30,923 bases of DNA from contig CAYYQL010000018.1 in NCBI GenBank assembly GCA_964473825.1, forward strand, positions 14,622 to 45,544. The letters are read 5' to 3'. This document shows positions 1 through 12,162 of this stretch, piece after piece. The translations under genes and the position numbers were made by a program. The notes under the pieces were generated by a model. That model searched no databases. It saw only the letters and a list, made by a program, of their open reading frames with translations, and was not told the DNA's origin. The number at the start of each line of letters is the position of its first letter. Position 1 is the first letter of the stretch. The stretch comes from an uncultured archaeon (GTDB taxonomy: Archaea > Asgardarchaeota > Thorarchaeia > Thorarchaeales > Thorarchaeaceae).

Positions 1-3000
1 GGATGGGGCACTTGGAACTGGACGAATGCAGTACATGTCTACAATGAAAGCGATGGACTCCACTTCAGGATTCATGTCAATACGATGTTTTGGCAAATGA
101 ACGTCACGGATTCCGCATACACCGTTGTCGTGACTGCTCATACTGATCCCTATATCGACCCAACTCCACTTACATTCTATATCACTGTAAAGGCCACATC
201 AACAACACTCGGAAAGAGCACGAGCGCCATCGACGAGTTCTATAAGACACACGAAACTCACGACTTCTGGCTAACCATCAGTACTCCAACTGTCACAAAT
301 TTGACAGACCTGGATGTACACACATACCTTGTCAAACTGGGTGCCACGAACGTGAGCTGGGGCGAGCTGACAGATAATGGCGACTACTACACCTTGCCTA
401 CCAGTGCTCTGCATGGATTGCCTGTGGGATTCTATACAGTCACGATTGCTCTGTCGAAGCAGAACTATGTCAACAGGACGGTTGTCCTAGATGTCAATAT
501 CGACCCTGTCCCGATGATGGTAGATTCGTTGATTGCGAACAGCTACCTCTGGGACACTGGAAGTGAAATCATTGCCTTCGAGTTCATAAACGACCTGAAC
601 GGAAGCAATCCCGAACTCTCGGGGGTTACAGTGACGTTACAGTGGTTCACTGGCAGCTGGGTATCTATTTACAATATGACACCTCGGACACTCAGTCCAA
701 CGCTTGGAACCTACACAACGACCTTCCCCTCTGATTTGTTGGATGCTAGTGCCGATTATTTCTTGCGGGTCACCTGTTCTAAAGCCAATTACGAGACAGC
801 CGCGGCTAACTCCTCATCGCTCCATGTTAGTCCTGCACCAACGACTCTTGATATCGTGAGTTCATCCACAACAATTGTGGACTGGCTAGATGCTGGCATG
901 TTTGACCTCTCATTTGTTCGTGATAGCGGGAGTGTGGGCCTGTCCGGTGCTTCTATAACGAACAACTGGACCCAGCCGATGTCAGTGAGTTATCAGGGCT
1001 CTGGCACCTACAGGCTGAGTTTTGATACGTCAGTACCCTCGGGTTCCTATACCATTGATCTGGCCTTTTCTCTGGCAAACCACGTTGATGGTCTGGCTCA
1101 AGTCGAACTGACTGTCCGGATTCCATTGCTGATTGAGGCGGATTTCAGTTCAATAGAGAATTCACTTGAGACCTATTGGACCCATTCTTTCGATATCAAT
1201 ATCACCCTCTACGACCAATCGAGAACCGACACTCACGTGGTGGCCGCAGCTATCACCTACTCGTGGTATATGGAGTCAGTGATTGATCAGAGCGGAACAC
1301 TGACAGAAGGGCCCTCAGGGCTCTACTATATGACTCTGAATGCAAATGATGCCCTTCCAAACGACCTCTCCTATATCGATGACTACTACACCATTGTGCT
1401 CACGGCTGAGAAGTCGGGATGCACCACCGCAGTATCCACAATCTACGTGGTGATCAGTTCAACTCCTAATGAGATTGTGTTGGCTCAAGATTACTATGAG
1501 CAGTTCTATGATGACACATTCGACGTTTCGTTCTACTGGAATAACACCCTGGATAATGCCCCGATAACCGAGTTCGAGACCGCAACTTATGCCGTTTTAG
1601 ATATCTCAGCCAACGTCACAACCGGTGTGAACGAAGGTACAGGATGGTACACCATCAGCCTCAACACCAGAGAACTGGGCATGATTGCAGCGGTCCAAGG
1701 GTCGGTATACGTCTTACGCATCAGGATGACACTTAGCGGGTTTGAGTCCCACGAGCTAACAACCGTGGTGGTTCTGATTCGAGAGGCTCCGACTGCTCTC
1801 ATCATAGAAGAGATTAGTGAAGTGAACTGGAGCGACCAACTGGAGATAGTGGCCCGTCTCTGGGACACAGAGCATAACGTATTGGTCGATGGCCCCGCAG
1901 AGGCCACTCTCATGGTTTACGGTACCGACTACAGTCAAGTTGCCAGCAACAATGGTTCTGGAATATTCATTTGGACGGTCCAGACCGATGACTGGTTCAG
2001 CGGGAGCACAGAGTACCTCTTCGAGTTCGCGTACTCGCTTGAGAACTATGTTGATGGCTCAAACTCAACAAACATCTACCTGAACCCGATTCTCGCAGTG
2101 ATCACGAAGGATGTATCGCAAACAACCCCCATTTCTGTGGTCTGGAGTGAGGAGTTCGGCCTTCGAGTTAATGTTAACCAAGACTACGGTACACTGAGCA
2201 GTCCCATCAATGGTCTGACTGTAACGTACACATGGCTGGGCACATCCGTTTCTGGTGTCTTCACAGGCATTGGCAATGGTGGATATATCACCACAGTCAA
2301 CTCCAGCGAGATTCCTGTTGGCGAATATGTGCTTGTGGTTGATACATCTAACCAGAACTACACCTTCAGTAGCTGGAGTGTAGATGTCACGGTGAGTCCT
2401 GTGCTAGCCGACCTTCATCCGAGCCAGAGCTCCTTTGAGGGGATCTATGGTGGGTCTGCCTTCACAGTACGGTTGACGTACAACATCAGCTCAGGCATGA
2501 CTTTCGCTGGTCGCATCCTTGAGAATGCTGGAGTGGTTTCAGACTTCGGTGGCGGTCAGGTTGGAACTTGGGATGCATCAACGGGGACTTACAGGTTTGT
2601 TATTGATCCAACGACGCTGGATGCTGACCTGATACCTGGCGTCTTCACGGTTAATTTCACGGCCACACTGGAGAACTACACCACGGCCACGATACAAGTC
2701 ATCTTGGACATTTCGGCATCGACGAGTCTAACTGTGCCGAACATCCAAGTACAAATCGGTCAGACTGCCACAATATACGTGAATTACTATGATAGCACGA
2801 AGGCTCAACAGGTACCGTTCGACGCAGTGACCTCGCTGACATTGACAACACCTCTCGCTGAGTTCTCAAAGGATGACTTCCAAGTTGCAGATGACGGTCG
2901 GTACTACCTAGAGATATCCCCGTCACAGATTGGAGAAATCAGCAGTGAGCCCTACACACTTACAGTGAGTGTTATAGCTGACGGCTATGAGCGCCAGATT

Positions 3001-3912
3001 GGTGTCAGCGCCGAGGCTCGTGTCATAGAAACTCAGTATACAATTCCTCTCGTCGTTACCACGCTTGTCATTCCACAGTCTCAGCTCTTCTTATTCCTGA
3101 TGATGATAGGTGGCTTCATCGTGGTCGGTACCGTAGTCACGGCGGTGCGGAGATGGAGAATGCCCTACCAGATCAAGCAGATCAACTCGGCTCTCAAGGA
3201 CATCGAAGACAACAAGAGAGCTAAGGTTGAGGGCATCAAGAACATGGGGATGGTAGTTTCAGAGCTCCTAGCTCCAGGTCTTGCAAATCTCGATATTGAA
3301 ACGCCGCATATCGATGTCGCCCCAGAAGTTGGTTACGAGGAAATTCTCGGCGAGGATACTGAAGACCTCTTGGGCGAACTCGACGCCTTGGATGAAGTTG
3401 GGGAAGAGGGTGCGGCTGACTTAGACGACGTTGAGGTGCGGGACTACGAGGCCGAGCTTGAGGCAGAACTCGAGTCAGTAGAGGAAGGCGCAGAGGTAGA
3501 GGTTGACGAAGAAGCTGAAGCAGAAGTTGAATCCGAGACAGAAGCTGAGGAAGAAGCTGAAACAGATGCTGAGAGTGCCGAAGAGCCATCTGAGGTCCCT
3601 GAACTTGAGGAGGAAACTGAAGCGGAAATCGAGCCTGAGGAAGAAATAGACGCAGATTTCGAACCTGAACCAGAGGAGGAGGTCGAGGCGGAAGAAGAAC
3701 CCTCTGAAGAAGAAGCCGAGGTCGAGCCCGAGGATGCAGCAACTGAAGAAGAGCCCGATTCAGAACCCTCTGAGGATAATCGAAAGATGGAGCTCATCGA
3801 GAAACTTCCCGACGAAATCAGAGAGGCTATCCCAACCGAGGATCTGAAGCTGCTTAGCATTGAGGAATTGGAGGCACTTCTCGAATCTGATGCCGAGTTT
3901 CTAGGAGAATAA
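1..3912 (+). CDS. Giant single-pass cell-surface protein with tandem Ig-like/beta-sandwich repeats, C-terminal TM helix and acidic cytoplasmic tail (5'-partial)
   Basis: Frame is open from position 1 (GWGTWNWTNAVHVYNES...), so the true start probably lies upstream of the window. About 9 repeats of ~105-115 aa share G-x-Y...Y-x-[LIV]...[KL]-x-[NG]-Y; many N-x-S/T sequons; hydrophobic helix LFLFLMMIGGFIVVGTVVTAV followed by RRWR; Glu-rich tail. Confidence 0.85.
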   Translation, partial: GWGTWNWTNAVHVYNESDGLHFRIHVNTMFWQMNVTDSAYTVVVTAHTDPYIDPTPLTFYITVKATSTTLGKSTSAIDEFYKTHETHDFWLTISTPTVTNLTDLDVHTYLVKLGATNVSWGELTDNGDYYTLPTSALHGLPVGFYTVTIALSKQNYVNRTVVLDVNIDPVPMMVDSLIANSYLWDTGSEIIAFEFINDLNGSNPELSGVTVTLQWFTGSWVSIYNMTPRTLSPTLGTYTTTFPSDLLDASADYFLRVTCSKANYETAAANSSSLHVSPAPTTLDIVSSSTTIVDWLDAGMFDLSFVRDSGSVGLSGASITNNWTQPMSVSYQGSGTYRLSFDTSVPSGSYTIDLAFSLANHVDGLAQVELTVRIPLLIEADFSSIENSLETYWTHSFDINITLYDQSRTDTHVVAAAITYSWYMESVIDQSGTLTEGPSGLYYMTLNANDALPNDLSYIDDYYTIVLTAEKSGCTTAVSTIYVVISSTPNEIVLAQDYYEQFYDDTFDVSFYWNNTLDNAPITEFETATYAVLDISANVTTGVNEGTGWYTISLNTRELGMIAAVQGSVYVLRIRMTLSGFESHELTTVVVLIREAPTALIIEEISEVNWSDQLEIVARLWDTEHNVLVDGPAEATLMVYGTDYSQVASNNGSGIFIWTVQTDDWFSGSTEYLFEFAYSLENYVDGSNSTNIYLNPILAVITKDVSQTTPISVVWSEEFGLRVNVNQDYGTLSSPINGLTVTYTWLGTSVSGVFTGIGNGGYITTVNSSEIPVGEYVLVVDTSNQNYTFSSWSVDVTVSPVLADLHPSQSSFEGIYGGSAFTVRLTYNISSGMTFAGRILENAGVVSDFGGGQVGTWDASTGTYRFVIDPTTLDADLIPGVFTVNFTATLENYTTATIQVILDISASTSLTVPNIQVQIGQTATIYVNYYDSTKAQQVPFDAVTSLTLTTPLAEFSKDDFQVADDGRYYLEISPSQIGEISSEPYTLTVSVIADGYERQIGVSAEARVIETQYTIPLVVTTLVIPQSQLFLFLMMIGGFIVVGTVVTAVRRWRMPYQIKQINSALKDIEDNKRAKVEGIKNMGMVVSELLAPGLANLDIETPHIDVAPEVGYEEILGEDTEDLLGELDALDEVGEEGAADLDDVEVRDYEAELEAELESVEEGAEVEVDEEAEAEVESETEAEEEAETDAESAEEPSEVPELEEETEAEIEPEEEIDADFEPEPEEEVEAEEEPSEEEAEVEPEDAATEEEPDSEPSEDNRKMELIEKLPDEIREAIPTEDLKLLSIEELEALLESDAEFLGE

Positions 3913-4255: not shown

Positions 4256-5137
4256 ATGATTCGCGAGATATACGTGTTCAAGGAAGGACAGACCCTTTTC
4301 AAAGATGTTATTGTCCCAAACAACGACCTTGACACGGATGCGGTTATGATGCTTGTTTCTTCTTCGGCCATGAAGCTCCAAGAGTGGAAGATAGACAGTA
4401 TGGAGATCGAGCGATTTCGATATGTATACATGAATTCACATGATACCCAATTCATTGTCACAATGGATCGTCAGGCTTCGTTGCAGAAGGTGACGGAGGC
4501 CATGATGAACATGGTTTCAAAATTCATGACTGCCTTTGAGAGCGTCCTAGAGTCTGACGAATGGAAATCGACAGACTTCTCTCCCTTCAAGGTCGGATTT
4601 CGCTCTCTTGTAGGCCGGATTCCCGTGAAGGTATGTCTTGCCGGACATGGTGGAACTGGTAAGACCACTCTTCTTGAGCTCGCAACTCTGCCCTCCCAAG
4701 GCCCCCCTCAGGAGTATGTTCCAACTTTCTTTGGTGACAAGGCTCTACTTAAGGCGGACTTCGACCCCTATGTTTTTAGTATGTTCGACCTCGGAGGTCA
4801 AGACAGGTTTGTGCAGGAGTGGGGGAAGATTATTCGTGCAGGAAGCATGGTTATCCTGGTCACTGATTCTACCGAGGAGAACATGGCTTGGACGAAACGT
4901 GTAGCATACCCCGTGCTGAAGTCTGAATTACCTTATGCGCGTGCAGTCGCAATAGCCAACAAACAGGACTTGAAGGGGGCACTCTCACCTGAAGAAGTTG
5001 GCCGACGCTTGGATGTTCCAGCATATGGAATGCAGGCAAATAAGAGGGATTTTCGTGACCGGTGGCTCAAGCTGTTGAAAGGTGTGGCGTTTGAAACATT
5101 GGAATACAGAATCGTCAATGAGATAGAGGTCGAATAA
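4256..5137 (+). CDS. Longin-like domain fused to an Arf-like small GTPase
   Basis: G1 GHGGTGKTT, G2 YVPT, G3 FDLGGQDRF, G4 ANKQD, G5-like GMQA. The N-terminal ~120 aa show the beta-beta-alpha-beta-beta-beta-alpha-alpha pattern typical of longins (MIREIYVFKEGQTLF...YVYMNSHDTQFIVTMD...). Confidence 0.88.
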   Translation: MIREIYVFKEGQTLFKDVIVPNNDLDTDAVMMLVSSSAMKLQEWKIDSMEIERFRYVYMNSHDTQFIVTMDRQASLQKVTEAMMNMVSKFMTAFESVLESDEWKSTDFSPFKVGFRSLVGRIPVKVCLAGHGGTGKTTLLELATLPSQGPPQEYVPTFFGDKALLKADFDPYVFSMFDLGGQDRFVQEWGKIIRAGSMVILVTDSTEENMAWTKRVAYPVLKSELPYARAVAIANKQDLKGALSPEEVGRRLDVPAYGMQANKRDFRDRWLKLLKGVAFETLEYRIVNEIEVE

Positions 5138-5138
5138 T

Positions 5139-5708
5139 ATGGATATTTCAGAGGAATCCTCACGAAACGTAATGGACGAGAAGGAACGTAAGAGGCTCAT
5201 TACCGAGATTGGACGAATTAAGGAGGTTCTTGACAGTTTCAAATACGGACTGAACTTCGAGGAGTTTGCGGATGAGGTTTTCAAGACTGTGAATCGTCAG
5301 ACAGTGGTAGTCAAGCGTCTGGAGTCGACGATGCTTCAAATTATGGATCGGATGAATGCCTTGGAAACGAAGCTGGATGAAGGAATAGAAGTCCGAGTGG
5401 CTTCCGTTTCGGGCGACCTGGAGATTGGTGAGAGCAGAACGGGGGTCACCACTGACGTGGCGATGGAATCGGAGGGTGATGTGGTTTCAGAGGGGGAAAT
5501 AGAGCGAAGTCGAAAGCAACTTGAGAGCGAGGCATCCGAATTAGAGATGAAGATTAGCCGCTTATTTGAGAAAGAAAACGAGCTGTTGGAAATGGGCCTG
5601 AATGATCCTGCTAGTGCGGAGGAATATGAGGAAAAGGCACGAGTGGCCAGAGAGATGCGCTTAGACTTAAAGAATCAGCTCAAGATTATCAAGCAAGAAC
5701 TAGACTAA
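5139..5708 (+). CDS. Hypothetical alpha-helical/coiled-coil protein
   Basis: Starts 1 nt after the GTPase stop; two heptad-rich helical regions separated by an acidic linker. Confidence 0.8.
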   Translation: MDISEESSRNVMDEKERKRLITEIGRIKEVLDSFKYGLNFEEFADEVFKTVNRQTVVVKRLESTMLQIMDRMNALETKLDEGIEVRVASVSGDLEIGESRTGVTTDVAMESEGDVVSEGEIERSRKQLESEASELEMKISRLFEKENELLEMGLNDPASAEEYEEKARVAREMRLDLKNQLKIIKQELD

Positions 5709-5723
5709 TCAGGTGATTTGAAA

Positions 5724-6089
5724 ATGGGATTATTCGATCGGTGGAGAAGAAAGAAAGAAGACAAGAGAGACACTAGGGTCAAAGGGCGGGAGATACTTAC
5801 AAGTCAACCGCCCTCTGCAAGAGTGAAGCAAGTACAGGATCTTTCACCCGAGGGTCAAAGCCAGTTGGCTGCCCTCGTTGCAGAATATGAGCGTCTGAAA
5901 AAGCGCCGAGAGGAGCTTCAAGATGAACGTGGCCAACTCACAGAGCGACTTGACCGGGGAGAACTTACACCCATCGCGTTCAGGAAGGAGCTTATGTCCC
6001 GCATTCAGGAAGCCTCTAGAGTCACGGAGAATCTGAAAACAACCTCTTCAAAACTGGCTTCTATGGGTTATCGGGGCATTCTTCACTGA
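5724..6089 (+). CDS. Small protein with basic/amphipathic N-terminus and C-terminal helical hairpin (steadiness-box/CdvA-like)
   Basis: AGGTGA SD at 5711-5716; ATG at 5724 gives MGLFDRWRRKK; hairpin turn LTERLDRGELTPIAFRKEL. Confidence 0.75.
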   Translation: MGLFDRWRRKKEDKRDTRVKGREILTSQPPSARVKQVQDLSPEGQSQLAALVAEYERLKKRREELQDERGQLTERLDRGELTPIAFRKELMSRIQEASRVTENLKTTSSKLASMGYRGILH

Positions 6090-6100
6090 GGTGAGGAACA

Positions 6101-7531
6101 CTGTCCGACGAACACGACAGTCCTCAAGAGAATACAGAACCCTCTGGTATTGAGGAAGAGACCAAGCGTCTGATAGACGAAGCCACGGCTGGAGATGGCC
6201 CTAGATTCGGTACTGATAAGGGCACTGCGTCGCGAGCGAAGCTTGAGGTGGGGCCTGAAGAAGGCTCTGCCGCAAGACTGATTGACGAAACATTTGCCCG
6301 AATACAGGTCAGAATGGAGGATCTTCTCTCAACTGTTGAAGATAGCCTTAGGTCCACACAGGATGGACTTGACGGACAAGTCAACAAGGTCATAGAAGAT
6401 CTATCCTCAAAGTTGAAGGCAGCCGGTCTCGGTGTCTTCACCACGAAGGCTGTATCCATCGTCAAAGAAGAGGTACAATCAGGTCTATCGAGTAAGGCGG
6501 TTCTGTCAGCAGTATTTGACACGATTGGCGAGGTACGCGATGAAGTTGGCGATATCGTGACCAAGGCCAGCAGAGGAGCCGTCCGCAGCGTCGGAGAGAC
6601 AACCGTCAATCTTCGGTCAAGGTTAGTGCGGCTTCATGCCCGACTCAGTGAGAAGGAGCAAGACCTCGAAGCTGCTCTGGCCAATATTGGGCAACTACGT
6701 TCTCGTGTTGCTGAACTCAAGGTGATGCTTTCATCAAAGACTGAGGCAACGGCTGGGAGTCAACAGGAGGTTTCTCGTCTAAAGCAGGTGGTATCGAATC
6801 TTGAGGAGGCTCTTGAGACGCGGGATGCCTCGATATCAACACTCAAGGGAGAACTCCAACAGGCAAACTCACAGATTGACGAGCAACGAAATCTACTCGC
6901 GAAATTAGATTCGGCCGAGGAACTTGTAACCGACTACGAAGAGAAGACAAGAGAGGTTTCCGTACTCAAGGGAAGACTTGCTGAAGCCAATGAAACAATC
7001 TCTCAGAGGGATTCAACAATCGACATTCTTCGAGAGGAGGTTGGACGACTCAGCAATTCAACGGAACAGATGAGTGCCAAGATTGGTGAGTTTGAAGAGA
7101 ACCTCGCTATTCTTCGCGGAGAACGTGAAGCCGCGAAGACTGAAGTCGAGCAGCTCACGGCCCAGATTACTGAGCTCGAGGCTCGGTGGGACACGCTTTA
7201 TCAGGTTGCCGAGGAGGAACCCGGCTTCAAGGCCTATTTTGTTGTTGCAGACAAGAAGCACTGGTTTGAGCTCTCTCATCTCTCATCGGCACTTGGAGTA
7301 CCGGTCGTGTTACTGAAGCGACAGCTTCAGAAGTTCATTGATGCCGGTCTTCTGGAGATTGATGGAGAACGCATCCGTCCCCGTAATCTCTCTGAAGTGG
7401 CTCAAGAGGCCGCAGGTGTTGATGAGAAGCTTCTCGAGGATGCAAAGGCTGGTCTAGATGCCGCCAGTTCGCAGGACCCCGAGGATGAAGTGATTCAGTC
7501 TGAAGAGGAATCGGGAAGAAAACAACGATAG
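6101..7531 (+). CDS. Long coiled-coil protein with C-terminal winged-helix/HTH domain
   Basis: Probable CTG start at 6101, after a GAGGTGA SD and in frame with the 6248 ORF (MSDEHDS...). About 190 aa of continuous heptads, then FKAYFVVADKKHWFELSHLSSALGVPVVLLKRQLQKFIDAGLLEIDGERI (wHTH pattern). Confidence 0.8.
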   Translation: MSDEHDSPQENTEPSGIEEETKRLIDEATAGDGPRFGTDKGTASRAKLEVGPEEGSAARLIDETFARIQVRMEDLLSTVEDSLRSTQDGLDGQVNKVIEDLSSKLKAAGLGVFTTKAVSIVKEEVQSGLSSKAVLSAVFDTIGEVRDEVGDIVTKASRGAVRSVGETTVNLRSRLVRLHARLSEKEQDLEAALANIGQLRSRVAELKVMLSSKTEATAGSQQEVSRLKQVVSNLEEALETRDASISTLKGELQQANSQIDEQRNLLAKLDSAEELVTDYEEKTREVSVLKGRLAEANETISQRDSTIDILREEVGRLSNSTEQMSAKIGEFEENLAILRGEREAAKTEVEQLTAQITELEARWDTLYQVAEEEPGFKAYFVVADKKHWFELSHLSSALGVPVVLLKRQLQKFIDAGLLEIDGERIRPRNLSEVAQEAAGVDEKLLEDAKAGLDAASSQDPEDEVIQSEEESGRKQR

Positions 7532-7571
7532 CTAGCTGAGTTGGATTCACAACCTCAGATAAAGGAGAGCA

Positions 7572-7922
7572 ATGATATTGACACGGTCACTGGACGACAC
7601 AATGCGTTTTCTTGAGAATTACACGCTCGCTTGGCATCATTGGCTAATCGTGTTGTCACTGTTGAAACTTGGAGGAGCTGCGACAAAAGGACAAATCATG
7701 CCAGCGTTCAAGAAGGAGGGATTCTCCCCTCACGCAATCAATGAGGTATTTCGGACTGATTTGATTGAGCTAGGCCAGGCAGTCGAGGTAGAAGGAGGGA
7801 CCCATAGTATTCAACCGGACACGATGATCTATCTTACAGAAAATCCCAAGTTCAGGTCATTTGTAAAGAAGAATCTGAAATCCGTTGTTCGAACACTCAA
7901 GAGACGAACTCCAGATGCTTAG
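7572..7922 (+). CDS. Small hypothetical protein, probable winged-helix fold
   Basis: AAGGAG SD upstream; pattern IVLSLLKLGGAATKGQI...DLIELGQAVEV...IYLTE resembles helix-helix-helix-wing. Confidence 0.7.
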   Translation: MILTRSLDDTMRFLENYTLAWHHWLIVLSLLKLGGAATKGQIMPAFKKEGFSPHAINEVFRTDLIELGQAVEVEGGTHSIQPDTMIYLTENPKFRSFVKKNLKSVVRTLKRRTPDA

Positions 7923-8149
7923 AATCTTACATATCTCTAAAAGAATCAAGTCTTTACATGTAAGAAATGTGTAAGATTTCCTCCTTGTTGGTATATTGTG
8001 TCGGTCATGGCGGTGGAGAGGTGGAACGCAGAAGTCTCTTGCAGGCGACGTTCACTCACCAAACTGTAAGAAACAGATTTTATATTGCCAACGTGATTTC
8101 AGGCACAACTCTTTTCTTGAGATTACATCTTTGGAAGGCTGGGATTTCG

Positions 8150-8470
8150 ATGACCATCAAGGCATCCAAGTGCAGTCAGTGTGGGCGGTTTGTGATACCT
8201 CCGCGGGAGATTTGTCCCTATTGTAGGAGTACTGGTTCCGACATTCTGACGGTACAGGTTTCTTCTCGCGGCATAATCGATAGCTACACAGTCTTGCATA
8301 TGCCACCAGAGGGGTTTACTCCTCCGTTACTTCTGGCACTAGTGCGGCTAGAGGTAGGTGCGTCGATTCTATGCCTGGGTGAAACTGACATTTCAGATAG
8401 CGTGGCAATAGGCACTCCTGTTTCTGTTGAAGCCGACGAGGAAGAACGGTTTCGATTCAAGACAATATGA
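8150..8470 (+). CDS. DUF35/ChsH2-like Zn-ribbon + OB-fold protein
   Basis: KCSQCGRFVIPPREICPYC rubredoxin-like ribbon, then GIIDSYTVLH..PEGF..PLLLALVRL OB fold; probable start ATG 8150. Confidence 0.9.
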   Translation: MTIKASKCSQCGRFVIPPREICPYCRSTGSDILTVQVSSRGIIDSYTVLHMPPEGFTPPLLLALVRLEVGASILCLGETDISDSVAIGTPVSVEADEEERFRFKTI

Positions 8471-8580
8471 CCTGATCAACTCTGTTTTCAGTTACTGATG
8501 ACCGATTTCTCACTGTTTCCTGAAAGCGCATAGGTATTGATTTAAGGAGTGATGCCTAACGCCCGCGCAAGTGGATTGAC

Positions 8581-9747
8581 ATGACTGCTCATTTGAGTGA
8601 CGTTCTATGGACAGAGGATGAGATAGATTTTCGCGAGGAAGTGCGCGGCTTCTGTCAGAAAGAGATTGCACCAATCGCTGATGAGATTGACCACGGTCCC
8701 TATCCGCGGGAGCTTCTTCGGAAGATTGGAGAGGCTGGATACATGGGTGTGCTCCACGAGAAAGAGCTTGGCGGGTCGGAACGAGGGAACTCGTTTGAGA
8801 TTATTGTGGCTGAAGAAATATCCGCTGTGAACGGGGGTCTAGACATGGCTCGTATGGCCTCTACGACTCTCTACGGAATGCCAGTCAGCAAGTTTGGCAC
8901 AAAGGAACAGAAGGAAGAGTACCTCAAACCCATCATAACAGGGGAGAAGATCGGCTGTATCGGGATTACTGAACCCAATGTGGGATCAGACACCGCTGGT
9001 ATGGAAACCCAGGCCAAGAAGGATGGCGATGAGTGGGTTATCAACGGTGAGAAACGCTACATCACAAACGGAAGCCAGGCTGACTTCATGTGCTGTTTCG
9101 CAATCACTAATCCAGAAGTCAAGGCGAAAGAGGGAATGACCGCATTCATCCTCGATACCAAGGCAGATGGATTCAGCGTTGTTGAGGATCATGACCTCAT
9201 GGGAATGAAGTCTGCGAGAGTGTCACATCTGAAGCTTGAAGATGTTCGTGTGAAGCCAGAGATGGTCCTTGGTGAACCCGGTCAGGGCTTCTGGATTCTT
9301 ATGGATGAGCTTGATAGTGAGCGGACGGCTATTGCAGGTGAGGCAATAGGATACGGCCGCACTCCGTATGAAATTGCGGTTCAGTATGCTGATGAACGAG
9401 AGCAGTTCGGACGGAAAATCAGGCAGTTCGAGGGTATCAGTTTCAAGATAGCTGATATGGCCATGAAGTTAGAGGCTGGACGTGCGTTGACGCTCACAGC
9501 AGCGAGAATGCTCGATAAGGGAATGAAGGCTACCAAGCAGGCAACAATAGCCAAACTGTATACGACTGAGGCTGCCATAGAGATAACCAATGATGCTCTC
9601 CAGATTCTCGGTGGTGCCGGGTACACGACCGACTACCCGATAGAACGATTCCTTCGCGATGCGCGTCTAATGACTATCGGAGGGGGAACCGTAGAGATAC
9701 TTAGGTTTCTTATCCAACGGGAAGTTTACAAGGAGTTCTTCCCTTGA
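8581..9747 (+). CDS. Acyl-CoA dehydrogenase
   Basis: ITEPNVGSD, WVINGEKRYITNG, REQFGRKI, QILGGAGY, TIGGGTVEI motifs. Confidence 0.95.
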   Translation: MTAHLSDVLWTEDEIDFREEVRGFCQKEIAPIADEIDHGPYPRELLRKIGEAGYMGVLHEKELGGSERGNSFEIIVAEEISAVNGGLDMARMASTTLYGMPVSKFGTKEQKEEYLKPIITGEKIGCIGITEPNVGSDTAGMETQAKKDGDEWVINGEKRYITNGSQADFMCCFAITNPEVKAKEGMTAFILDTKADGFSVVEDHDLMGMKSARVSHLKLEDVRVKPEMVLGEPGQGFWILMDELDSERTAIAGEAIGYGRTPYEIAVQYADEREQFGRKIRQFEGISFKIADMAMKLEAGRALTLTAARMLDKGMKATKQATIAKLYTTEAAIEITNDALQILGGAGYTTDYPIERFLRDARLMTIGGGTVEILRFLIQREVYKEFFP

Positions 9748-9787: not shown

Positions 9788-10339
9788 ATGACAAAGCTGG
9801 AATATCTGATGGTCTATGCGGAATCTGGTCTTCCTATCTACAGCAAGTGTTTTGGGGGATTTTGCAGAGCGGCCTTCAAGAATCCCGAAATGTTATCTGG
9901 TCTGCTCTCCGCCATAGAAACAATACCCCCAACTCTAGGGGCTGGGCTATCCTTGAACTCGATCACGATGGGGCATACCCAGATGCGGTTCTCAAAGAAG
10001 ATGCCGAGCGGCCACTCGGTCGTCATCGGACTCTCTGAGGAGGCTCCTGAGGTTGTTCAGGCTGTATTCGAGGCTGTTTCCGATGTGCTCGATATGCCCA
10101 ACTTTCGGGAAAAGGACTGGGGCACTATCACTCGCGACGAGATGGATGAATTCAAAGAAGAGCTGCTTAAACGCTCATTGGTTGACGCTCTTCATGATCA
10201 CGGCGGCTTTGAGGATGCATGCCCTCTGGGCGACCAATGCCCGATGCATACCGATGCAGTGATGTCTCGCAGAGAAACGATCTGGAATTCAATGAAAGCG
10301 AAATATCGCGCTCTCAGAGAGAAGATGTCCCGGAAATAG
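9788..10339 (+). CDS. Longin-like domain protein with Cys/His-rich C-terminal motif
   Basis: N-terminal LEYLMVYAESGLPIYS and LSGLLSAI helix are typical of longin-like domains; CFGGFC and CPLGDQCPMH motifs. Confidence 0.7.
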   Translation: MTKLEYLMVYAESGLPIYSKCFGGFCRAAFKNPEMLSGLLSAIETIPPTLGAGLSLNSITMGHTQMRFSKKMPSGHSVVIGLSEEAPEVVQAVFEAVSDVLDMPNFREKDWGTITRDEMDEFKEELLKRSLVDALHDHGGFEDACPLGDQCPMHTDAVMSRRETIWNSMKAKYRALREKMSRK

Positions 10340-10371: not shown

Positions 10372-12162
10372 CTAGTCCTTTGCGAAGGCTACAATCCTGA
10401 AGACTCCCTCGTGTTCCTCAATGGTTGCTATGAAACTATCACCAGGTGACACGGTGAGTAGCTCGTACCAATCGGTCGTGTTCATCCAGTCTGCCATTCC
10501 CTCAATCCACTCAAAGGTCGAGTTGTCCGTTCTCAGAACGATGTGGGTGTTACCGTCCGATACATAGGATGTTACATTCAGGGCTGTTGCACTAAGGTCA
10601 AAGCGTTCGTCTTCGGTTGGAGGCTCTACAAAGCCGAGCATCTCTTCTACCTCTTCGATGTATCCTTCTCTCACGGCAGCGACGAGATCCGGATTGGAGG
10701 TTGTTCCCTTGGATTGAGTGAAGGAGAGTCCCTCCGTCTGTGCGTCCACGATGCCGAACGCGTGGAGTCTGAAGTCACTTATCTCATATGCCTCGGCATC
10801 CTCGTTGTAGGTGGAGTCATACCAGTAGACCGGGCAGTACCATGTCTGACGAATATAGGTTGAGTTGATTTGTACTGGATACAACAGTGGCATAGCTCCA
10901 AAATATGACCCGCTGACAGGTTGTGCAAACTGCTTGATCACTTCGTTGACTGCAGCCTCGCCGCTGACAAACGAAAGATTGGACATATCATAGTAATGGA
11001 TACCATCTGAAGTACCTCTCATAAGACCACTAAGAGTGAGGCTAGCTGCATCGGGTGGATGTAGCGCGACTAATGCCTCTACACGGTCCGTATCAGGGTT
11101 GAGTATGTATCTGGTATCCTCTGTCATCCTAAGTCTATCTCTTGACGCTTGGATGAACCACAAGAACCCTCCGGCGAAGAGGTCGAATCCGTCGTCCCTT
11201 CTATATCCGCCCCAGCGGTTTATCTGACGCTCCAACCATTCCTCAGAATATGCCTGTGTTATCCAGTCGGGTGTTTCTGCTAGAGTTGCGTATGTTCTCA
11301 CTGTACCATTCTGACAGTAGACCTTTGGTCCCAAGGGGCGCTCGATAAAATCCCAGCCAAGTTGTGTACGTGTCTGTACATAGACCAGATTGTTAGCAGG
11401 ATCCCAGGTGGGGTAGGCATACTCGTACGCAGATGTCATGTCTTCGAGGTAGTTACCAAACTGAATGTTTCGATCCCAGAAGAGCCCCTCACCTACAGGT
11501 ATCTGTACGTCTGTGATGACTTCAACCAAACTTGGATTGTTTGCATCTACTACGATAAAGCCTTGGATGAAGTTCTCTGAAAGGACGTTAGTGGACACGA
11601 CTATACAAACCCACACGAGCCGCCCGGCACGGGTTGTAATGTGCGAAGCAGCAATCTCAACATTTGAGCCTATCGATGACAGAAACTTCCTTGCAACAAA
11701 TGAAGCATAGAGCGAAGTCACGAGGCGAACTCGATCATCAGGTATTGGGTTGTTGAACAGCATTCCTTCTTCTTCGGTGATGAACTCGTTTACTGTCTGT
11801 GCATTGGCAACATCTGATGTCCAAGTTATGACCCCAGTGAAGGCTGGAATGACCAGTACAATGATGAAACCCATGCACACAAATGGCAGCCTTAGCCCTT
11901 CCATAAGATCCTCGACTCGTCCTCCCGGACGGAAACCGCCTGAGAAAATCATGAGCACTCCAAAGCTCATGAGAAGACCGATGGTGGCCCAGGGCAGCGC
12001 CATCATGGAGAAGATGCAGATTATCACCCATGCGACAGTCCCCCATATCAATCGTAGAGGCAACCACCGAATAAGTGCTCGTGCTCTCAGCATTCCGGGT
12101 CTATATGGCAGAGGGATTGCGTGCACTAGTATTGAAATCAAGAGGAACAACATCACATTCAT
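10372..12162 (-). CDS. Uncharacterised membrane-anchored protein (N-terminal TM helices, large extracytoplasmic domain)
   Basis: 596 aa; AGGTGA SD; 3-4 hydrophobic helices in the first ~115 aa, then a beta-rich domain with N-glycosylation sequons. Confidence 0.8.
   Translation of the reverse strand: MNVMLFLLISILVHAIPLPYRPGMLRARALIRWLPLRLIWGTVAWVIICIFSMMALPWATIGLLMSFGVLMIFSGGFRPGGRVEDLMEGLRLPFVCMGFIIVLVIPAFTGVITWTSDVANAQTVNEFITEEEGMLFNNPIPDDRVRLVTSLYASFVARKFLSSIGSNVEIAASHITTRAGRLVWVCIVVSTNVLSENFIQGFIVVDANNPSLVEVITDVQIPVGEGLFWDRNIQFGNYLEDMTSAYEYAYPTWDPANNLVYVQTRTQLGWDFIERPLGPKVYCQNGTVRTYATLAETPDWITQAYSEEWLERQINRWGGYRRDDGFDLFAGGFLWFIQASRDRLRMTEDTRYILNPDTDRVEALVALHPPDAASLTLSGLMRGTSDGIHYYDMSNLSFVSGEAAVNEVIKQFAQPVSGSYFGAMPLLYPVQINSTYIRQTWYCPVYWYDSTYNEDAEAYEISDFRLHAFGIVDAQTEGLSFTQSKGTTSNPDLVAAVREGYIEEVEEMLGFVEPPTEDERFDLSATALNVTSYVSDGNTHIVLRTDNSTFEWIEGMADWMNTTDWYELLTVSPGDSFIATIEEHEGVFRIVAFAKD

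Follow-up and report, generated by a model that had tools for sequence, protein, structure and literature searches.

Related GTPase Systems and the Locus Analyzed

In several known systems, a Ras-superfamily GTPase is accompanied by a partner of the longin or roadblock type. In eukaryotes, NPRL2-NPRL3 of GATOR1 and FLCN-FNIP, both of which act on Rag GTPases held by Ragulator, and C9orf72-SMCR8, which acts on Arf1, share the logic of a longin pair beside a small GTPase, and the regulators themselves consist of a longin followed by winged-helix-type domains. Ragulator also contains LAMTOR1, which is small and helical and binds the membrane with its MG-type N-terminus. In the bacterial MglA-MglB module and the actinobacterial conservon (CvnA-D), the gene for the GTPase is accompanied by others for a partner of the roadblock/longin superfamily, for a small winged-helix protein, and for a membrane component, and in Myxococcus, long coiled-coil proteins act as effectors of the MglA-MglB-type module. 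Arl1 and the GRIP golgins combine an Arf-family GTPase with a long coiled coil that has a small C-terminal binding domain. Here, we compare these systems with a locus in a stretch of 30,923 nucleotides (“the window”; G000:C18:14622-45544) from a Thorarchaeota metagenome-assembled genome (MAG) obtained from microbial mats. The locus consists of five genes, designated g1–g5, the first of which encodes a longin-Arf-like GTPase, and of two genes upstream of them.

In Asgard archaea, fusions of a longin to a GTPase have been published (Liu et al., bioRxiv 2020.10.19.343400; Tran et al., 2024, PMC10933270; Zhu et al., 2025, PMC11914678), and partners of the fused proteins are not given in those papers. 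The GTPase genes of MK-D1 generally lie outside operons with regulators (Tran et al., 2024). In most Thorarchaeial MAGs, Liu et al. described an NPRL2-like family, composed of a longin and a small C-terminal domain, plus longin-fused GTPases, and the two were not reported as neighbors; the operon that they presented (a LAMTOR1-like roadblock protein, a Rab-like GTPase, and a DENN protein) differs in its components from the present cassette. A paper published in Traffic in 2025 raises the question of which GTPases pair with the Asgard longins that carry a GP motif. No description of the present operon was found in a full-text literature search.

The five genes belong, as its downstream portion, to a Thorarchaeial cassette of seven genes, f408-g0-g1-g2-g3-g4-g5, and on balance, we favor the view that this cassette specifies a membrane-associated switch based on a small GTPase, together with a regulator, an anchor, and effectors of its own. 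An earlier note on this DNA, made from the sequence alone, had described a five-gene operon with gaps of 1, 15, 11, and 40 nucleotides, and the coordinates of the five open reading frames (ORFs) on the + strand agree with these spacers (g1–g2, g2–g3, g3–g4, and g4–g5, respectively). Shine-Dalgarno (SD)-like sites are present before genes 3–5, where it had placed them (GGTGAT at 5712-5717 for g3, GGTGAGG at 6090-6096 for g4, and AGGAG at 7563-7567 for g5), and g2 has one as well (GAGGT at 5126-5130). Among the five proteins, enzyme signatures of Pfam or NCBIfam occur in g1 only, in accordance with its statement that enzyme motifs are limited to the GTPase.

The GTPase g1

The gene g1 (4256..5137, + strand) encodes a protein of 293 amino acids, which was identified from its Pfam Arf match, its AlphaFold 2 (AF2) model, and its sequence motifs. 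In the model (pLDDT 88.6, pTM 0.86), residues 1–120 are arranged as bb-a-bbb-a-a and are followed by the G domain. The longin domain (amino acids 1–121; 4256..4618, +) was delimited with DSSP and VIA-align; its order of strands and helices in DSSP is that of longins, and an N-terminal helix is absent. It superposes on the longin of VAMP7 (4afi_B) with a Z score of 15.9 and a root-mean-square deviation of 2.2 over 116 amino acids (model residues 1–123), and on 2vx8_A with a Z score of 14.7 (VIA-align). The G domain (amino acids 122–282; 4619..5101, +) was delimited with Foldseek and VIA. Its top Foldseek match is the Asgard ArfR protein GerdArfR1 (8oum, E 5.6e-11), followed by Arl8b, Arl3, Arl6, Arl1, and Arf1, and its VIA Z score is 20.2 against Arf6 and merely 15.1 against LokiRagO (8yl2). 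Pfam Arf (PF00025) matches amino acids 123–254 with an E-value of 4.6e-12 and 46.2 bits (cut-off 22.3). In 20 g1 homologs, the G1 motif GxxxxGKT, the switch-I Thr157, DxxGQ (DLGGQ, with Gln182), and NKQD are invariant. The earlier description of gene 1 as a longin-Arf-like GTPase is therefore borne out by the AF2 fold, the superposition on the VAMP7 longin, the Pfam match, and the invariant G motifs. The combination of a longin with a G domain was seen again in two archaeal clusters of a structure atlas.

According to Vargova et al., the defining feature of Arf proteins is an N-terminal amphipathic helix that toggles with the nucleotide state. No such helix was found in g1, in which residues 1–121 are the longin, and the helix that precedes the G domain (residues 111–119) is inside the range aligned to the VAMP7 longin. 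g1 thus shares the G-domain fold and motifs of the Asgard ArfR/AArf proteins (GerdArfR1, 8oum; HodArfR1, 8ouk), but differs from them in that its G domain is not directly preceded by an N-terminal amphipathic helix. Features of Rag/Gtr proteins were not found either: Gtr1_RagA gave no Pfam match at E 0.1, and no C-terminal roadblock was found in the AF2 model, where the chain ends about 10 residues past the G domain. Rag GTPases carry such a roadblock, whereas g1 is Arf-like with an N-terminal longin. As shown by the predicted structure and the invariant motifs, g1 is an Arf-like GTPase with intact catalytic motifs and with a longin placed where Arf proteins carry the amphipathic helix.

Conservation of the Cassette

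The synteny of the five genes was analyzed with tblastn across 20 loci. In 11 genomes from nine genera of the family, the order is g0-g1-g2-g3-g4-g5, followed by genes for a DUF35 protein and an acyl-CoA dehydrogenase. Across these genomes, the amino acid identities are 77–93% for g1, 37–69% for g2–g4, and 62–85% for g5. The order of g1–g5 is also kept in a second family of the same taxonomic order, represented by genome G025, in which g1-g2-g3-g4 are followed by an extra gene for a 510-aa protein and then by g5; here, the DUF35 and acyl-CoA dehydrogenase genes are absent, and the upstream neighbor differs. The earlier note had named a lack of conserved gene order in related genomes as a finding that would speak against its proposal, and because the order is conserved, this objection falls away. 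Three genomes that have no g1 ortholog (G005, G007, and G011) also have no g5. As a separate observation, the extra 510-aa gene of G025 (L025 7958-9490) has an N-terminal signature of the f408 type (MPAGIALCSWNEKEG; hidden Markov model (HMM) E 2e-11), whereas in this genome the true ortholog of f408 neighbors a g0-like gene on a different contig (L067).

The gene f408 is outside the window, about 7 kb upstream of g1, and at least 13 Thorarchaeial genomes have an ortholog at about this distance upstream of g1. The position of f408 and of the surface-protein gene g0, which separates it from g1, varies. In genomes of the taxon that we label “genus g3” (G004 and G019), f408 directly adjoins g1, and the cassette is f408-g1-g3-g5, without g0, g2, and g4. 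In G023, a short g0 is between f408 and g1, and in G012 (L070), two tandem giant surface-protein genes of the g0 type occupy this place. A further arrangement, with two f408 copies 8 kb apart, was seen at G021:C1:1224393-1233664.

Outside Thorarchaeia, the gene g3 was the most useful marker. Its profile detected small proteins in 107 of the 301 sampled Asgard genomes, and 15 of these places were inspected. Tight operons of f408, a GTPase gene, and g3 were found in family f19 (Candidatus Freyarchaeum and relatives, Freyarchaeia), family f7 (Jordarchaeales), and family f13, and those of f13 also carry a g4-like protein of 232–239 aa. A g3-type gene directly follows the longin-GTPase gene in Frey-, Jord-, and other Asgard lineages, and in families f21 and f6, only f408 and g3 are paired. 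In the cassette of the G031 family, f408 and the GTPase are accompanied by a helical protein and by two further proteins, one of 303 aa and a g4-like one of 157 aa. The 303-aa protein of this sister cassette (L027 5558-6466, −) is longin-like and matches DUF742, the family of conservon CvnC, with an E-value of 5.5e-6 and 26.6 bits (cut-off 27), and NPR2 weakly (E 0.012).

The genome under study contains three paralogous pairs of f408 and a GTPase. The further f408-like/GTPase pairs are at G000:C4:131157-132762 and G000:C11:23971-27588, and in the latter, the GTPase domain is inside a 609-aa ORF. After the C4 pair comes a gene for a helical protein of 210 aa, which gave weak matches of the GvpG and CdvA-like types.

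These distributions define an old core, f408-GTPase-g3, which is present in several Asgard lineages, and g2, g5, and g0 are Thorarchaeial additions to it. The earlier view of the genes as one unit is upheld in so far as they are conserved around a competent longin-Arf-like GTPase, but the set of five was incomplete, as f408 and g0 also belong to it.

The Upstream Genes f408 and g0

f408 is encoded by a 408-aa ORF (387 aa in other sources, starting MPEGLAVLKWDDELGP). It shows homology over its full length (E 1e-63 to 1e-12) to proteins that adjoin g1-like GTPases at five other loci, including its own C4 paralog, and the family has the signature MPxGxxVxxWD[DN]xxG. An ArsR-type winged helix makes up the C-terminal part: HTH_20 matches with 28.2 bits, above the cut-off, and the PDB profile search returned the ArsR family with an E-value of 0.0022. 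Its N-terminal part was compared with the g1 longin by pairwise hhalign, which gave a weak alignment of 89 collinear columns (P 0.0016). In a protein atlas, the nearest neighbors of f408 are unnamed Asgard clusters only.

A short motif of f408 recalls eukaryotic longin regulators. Longin-domain subunits of GTPase-activating proteins (GAPs) have a GP motif before strand 2, which in C9orf72 is accompanied by a WD; W33-D34 and G38-P39 of C9orf72 are essential (PMC12290439). The motif WDDE[LV]GP is present in six of the six Thorarchaeial f408 orthologs examined, and its WDxxxGP spacing equals that of C9orf72; in other lineages, the sequence is WD[DN]R[LIV]G[AT], so the proline is not general. f408 resembles the eukaryotic regulators in the succession of a candidate longin and a winged helix, but sequence homology of f408 to NPRL2, FLCN, SMCR8, or C9orf72 is not detectable.

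g0 is a giant type-I surface protein, whose C-terminal 1303 aa occupy 1..3912 (+) of the window as an open frame, with orthologs upstream of g1. The gene starts at G000:C18:11278, about 3.3 kb before the window, and is coupled to the f408 gene with zero gap. The only segment above the Kyte-Doolittle threshold, amino acids 1015–1051 of the window frame, marks a single transmembrane helix (3043..3153, +). An alignment of 12 orthologous tails identified a conserved cytoplasmic juxtamembrane segment of 85 residues (3148..3402, +; RRWRxPYQIKQIN ... LLAPGLA ... ELDALD), which is the sole well-conserved cytoplasmic stretch of g0 and is followed by an acidic, poorly conserved tail up to 3912. Orthologs of g0 are directly upstream of g1 in most Thorarchaeaceae. 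The association of the operon with the giant surface protein, proposed earlier from their adjacency, is strengthened by the position of g0: it is really linked to the cassette, because it is inserted between f408 and g1, which are direct neighbors in other lineages.

The Small Candidate Partners g2 and g3

The gene g2 (5139..5708, +) encodes an acidic helical protein of 189 aa (isoelectric point (pI) 4.6), recognized by its conserved position. Helices at its N-terminus are joined by an acidic linker to a helix-turn-helix at the C-terminus, in which an EEYE motif occurs. It is kept in position across Thorarchaeia with 49–69% identity, and its homolog in G025 is detectable by HMM only (E 5e-5).

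The gene g3 (5724..6089, +), identified by alignment and synteny, encodes a basic protein of 121 aa (pI 10.1). Its N-terminus is MGLFDRWRRKK, and it ends in a helical hairpin with the turn LDRGELTPxxFRK. M1 and G2 were invariant in the first g3 alignment, and nearly all g3-type proteins open with MG, followed by an amphipathic segment, e.g., GIVEKVKSFFRTLL. The hydrophobic moment of the N-terminus is in the 93rd–98th percentile in the Frey- and Jordarchaeial members; the Thorarchaeial N-termini have a short hydrophobic patch and then a polybasic run, with a net charge of +2 to +6. Judged from its sequence, this conserved MG with the hydrophobic/basic segment is of a type that could bind a membrane, and the membrane-binding component postulated in the earlier note would find a plausible candidate here. 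The protein is likened to LAMTOR1 in this design, but no LAMTOR1 match to g3 was found in the Pfam scans and the PDB profile search. A search of the genome for an N-myristoyltransferase was empty, but control genomes were equally silent, so this result carries no weight.

Two relationships of g3 were considered and could not be established as homology by profile–profile comparison: that with the proteins that follow the paralogous GTPases (P 0.0088, hairpin only) and that with g2 (P 0.047).

The Coiled-Coil Protein g4 and the Winged-Helix Protein g5

The gene g4 (6101..7531, +), defined by SMC-type matches and alignment, encodes an acidic coiled-coil protein (pI 4.7). Its frame is open from 6095, and the earliest ATG, GTG, or TTG is the GTG at 6248. 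In 10 other genomes, the orthologs have GTG, TTG, or ATG starts at the position equivalent to CTG 6101 or no more than a few codons away from it, and an acidic N-terminal motif, IEEETKRLMxxA, is kept among them, which a start at GTG 6248 would remove. A CTG is also present at this position in a sister genome of the same genus. Because of these three observations, CTG 6101 is the best candidate, and g4 probably starts there, giving 476 aa, as had been proposed; this codon is 4 nucleotides past the SD-like GGTGAGG. The region 5900–6400 is covered by three metagenome assemblies, two of which are identical to the window, and the third has one unlocated letter different.

The g4 protein carries, in this order, the N-terminal motif (amino acids 17–28), a conserved helical region containing AGLGVF, a coiled coil extending over about 200 residues (approximately 165–368, the range of the SMC-type matches), a winged-helix-like end (375–430), and an acidic tail. 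The C-terminal domain (7223..7390, +) is marked by the block ARWDxLYQVAEDEPxFKAYF ... GLxEI and has a weak Pfam HemN_C match (E 0.0026, amino acids 391–427); the pattern of its residues suggests a winged-helix-like fold. Shorter g4-like proteins (157–239 aa; HMM E 1e-12 to 1e-16) are encoded in the same cassettes of two other Asgard families.

The gene g5 (7572..7922, +) encodes a basic winged-helix protein of 116 aa (pI 9.6), identified from its AF2 model and structural matches; most orthologs begin two codons downstream and have 113 aa. The model (pLDDT 90.8) has the arrangement H-b-H-H-b-wing-b plus a long basic C-terminal helix. The best structural matches (Foldseek, VIA) are all winged helices, none of them close: FOXN1 (Z 8.1), the origin recognition complex (ORC; Z 7.9), the ArsR family (Z 7.6), and MarR. 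The recognition-position helix has a net charge of −2 and the wing of −3, and all of the positive charge is in the separate C-terminal helix. In the protein atlas, the nearest clusters are unnamed “transcriptional regulator” clusters (0.91–0.92). Of the 76 genomes from the family, 42 yielded homologs with the g5 profile, as did the single genome from the sister family, but 0 of 224 other Asgard genomes did. Against 1.84 billion representative proteins, it gave 11 matches, all of them to members of its own family, to fragments, or to two repeat proteins. g5 is thus an orphan winged helix confined to Thorarchaeia among the genomes searched. A profile–profile comparison of g5 with the end domain of g4 gave P 0.09, and homology of the two was not established.

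Proposed Function of the Cassette

If the cassette encodes a membrane-associated GTPase switch, its parts may be arranged as follows. f408 would pair with the g1 longin and set the nucleotide state of g1, acting as either a GAP or a guanine nucleotide exchange factor. The MG amphipathic/polybasic segment at the N-terminus of g3 would bring the complex to the membrane and g3 would hold on by its hairpin, in the logic of LAMTOR1 in Ragulator; g3 would then supply in trans an N-terminal helix of the type that in Arf proteins is part of the GTPase itself. GTP-dependent effectors or scaffolds with matching charges would be provided by g2 and g4, which are acidic rods, and by g5, a basic winged-helix protein: g2, g4, and the g0 tail are acidic (pI 4.6–4.7), and g3 and g5 are basic (10.1 and 9.6). 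g0 would be the membrane partner, the state of the surface receptor/adhesin being coupled to the switch via the conserved cytoplasmic segment. More tentatively, and at a level of confidence well short of probable, we suggest that in the trio f408-GTPase-g3, archaea have a counterpart, and perhaps the precursor, of the GATOR1/FLCN-Rag-Ragulator or the C9orf72-SMCR8-Arf arrangement, with the Arf membrane helix provided in trans, and that it was wired in Thorarchaeia to a giant surface receptor/adhesin.

Several of our results weigh against this picture. The N-terminal 145 residues of f408 gave no Pfam match (19 members scanned) and no PDB profile match, longin families included; the full-length profile matched only ArsR-type winged helices, and databases name the protein an ArsR-type (also HxlR or MarR) transcription regulator. 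No invariant or near-invariant arginine was found in the f408 N-terminal alignment (19 members), so a role as an arginine-finger GAP is unsupported; a GAP-active complex would still be compatible with an f408 that lacks this residue, because in eukaryotes, the partner subunit can carry the arginine finger. The Thorarchaeial g3 N-terminus is only moderately amphipathic (42nd–65th percentile). The comparison of g2 with the approximately 200-aa proteins that follow the paralogous GTPases was not significant (profile–profile P 0.027, 27 columns). Finally, the synteny inside the family includes the unrelated DUF35 and acyl-CoA dehydrogenase genes, so family-level gene order alone proves little.

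A first alternative is golgin-like tethering, in which g1-GTP recruits g4, and also g2, to a membrane through the small C-terminal domain of g4, as Arl1 does with GRIP golgins, and the rods tether membranes, vesicles, or the g0 tail. In its favor, g4 has a coiled coil about 200 residues long and a conserved globular domain at the C-terminus; Arl1 in the golgin-245 GRIP complex is among the top structures for the g1 G domain, and g4-like proteins stand beside the GTPase again in other Asgard families. However, the sequence pattern of the g4 C-terminal domain is that of a winged helix and not of GRIP; the g4-like proteins of the other families are short (157–239 aa); and the rods are dispensable for the core, because the cassette of “genus g3” lacks g2 and g4. 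Internal vesicles are not known in any Thorarchaeota. We therefore consider tethering unlikely.

A second alternative, to which we likewise give a low probability, is signaling to transcription, in which f408, g5, and the g4 end domain would bind DNA as regulators and the GTPase and the surface protein would provide the sensory input that controls them, following the logic of the actinobacterial conservons. The ArsR-type match of the f408 C-terminus and the regulator names of f408 in the databases agree with this idea, as do the structural neighbors of g5, which are mostly DNA-binding winged helices, and the near-threshold DUF742 match of the 303-aa protein described above. In g5, however, the recognition-position helix and the wing are acidic, and winged helices are commonly protein–protein modules too, as in ESCRT-II, cullins, ORC, and NPRL2/3. 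A histidine-kinase-like ATPase was not found in the cassette, and Pfam searches of the five window proteins and f408 found no Roadblock/LC7, DUF742, or HATPase domain. The cassette accordingly differs from MglA-MglB and the conservons in that the regulator domain is a longin fused to the GTPase and a sensor-kinase-like ATPase is missing, and the DUF742 likeness is limited to a sub-threshold match in a related protein of another lineage.

The earlier note had also compared gene 3 with the steadiness box of ESCRT-I (endosomal sorting complex required for transport) and the winged helices with ESCRT-II and CdvB. An ESCRT-like remodeling or division module, with g3 as the steadiness-box hairpin, g4 and g5 as ESCRT-II/CdvB winged helices, and the GTPase in control of assembly, seems to us very unlikely. 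Some signals point toward it: the proteins that follow the paralogous GTPases have weak, sub-threshold CdvA-like coiled-coil matches (PF18822, E 1.6e-4 and 0.033), the CdvA hairpin resembles the steadiness box by HHpred (Makarova et al., PMC11188069), and a single g3 ortholog matches Mod_r/Vps37 with an E-value of 0.011. We take the CdvA/steadiness-box thread as a likeness at the level of fold class only. Two g3 members match SHOCT with the same E-value of 0.011, no Vps23_core match was found in any g3 family member (15, then 19 members), and the PDB profile search of g3 found no ESCRT-I chain, its best matches being a designed hairpin and the ribosomal protein uL29. The steadiness-box likeness of gene 3 was thus not confirmed, as only generic helical hairpins were matched. 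A genome-wide search for Vps23_core (PF09454) was silent, but so were the controls, and this absence is not evidence.

As for the winged helices, g5 is a generic one and the end of g4 is winged-helix-like, which retains that part of the earlier description, but the ESCRT-II likeness was not supported: g5 is a single rather than a tandem winged helix, and no ESCRT-II chain was found among its top 50 structural matches (Foldseek, VIA), with no Vps25, Vps22, or Vps36 among the best neighbors. Neither Vps23_core, Vps37, nor ESCRT-II gave a signal above noise, and the likeness to ESCRT-I and ESCRT-II, a helical hairpin plus winged helices, is one of fold class, while family-specific signal was found in no test here. 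The earlier statement that the locus appears separate from the canonical ESCRT/ubiquitin locus is in line with what was found: the Snf7 homologs of this genome are on contigs C4 and C10, and Vps4, Snf7, and ubiquitin genes were not found in any cassette locus examined.

It is most improbable that the genes are neighbors by descent only, without shared function, for which the equal synteny of the DUF35 and acyl-CoA dehydrogenase genes might speak, since the core pairings persist in distinct Asgard families with wholly different flanking genes, the gaps are 1–40 nucleotides with SD sites, and g1 and g5 were lost together.

Neighboring Genes

Directly after g5, a DUF35/ChsH2-type protein with an oligonucleotide/oligosaccharide-binding fold and an acyl-CoA dehydrogenase are encoded (7967-9747); they are syntenic only within the family and look like unrelated metabolic neighbors. 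They are followed in most genomes of the family, but not in the cassette of G025, by longin183 (9788-10339 in the window), a protein of 183 aa whose start is longin-like (weak Fuz_longin_1 match, E 0.015) and which has a set of Cys and His residues. Convergent to the cassette, a 596-aa protein with a hydrophobic N-terminal part is encoded at 10372-12162 (−). By eye, a similar protein is present in G025 at the same relative place (L025 10454-12181, −), with different intervening genes, and the 596-aa protein may belong to the neighborhood.

Implications for Asgard GTPases

Asgard genomes encode dozens of small GTPases together with longin and roadblock proteins, and since such genes generally lie outside operons, a GTPase is difficult to assign to its regulator (Tran et al., 2024). 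From genome context, the cassette described here offers one defined Arf-like GTPase with matched candidate partners: a longin-type regulator, a membrane anchor, coiled-coil and winged-helix effectors, and, in Thorarchaeia, a membrane receptor/adhesin, in a set small enough for in vitro work. If the membrane anchor is indeed supplied in trans, this would bear on the origin of Arf-type membrane switching before eukaryotes. If the proposed wiring of the switch to the surface receptor/adhesin is true, Thorarchaeia would have a prokaryotic pathway from a transmembrane receptor to a G protein.

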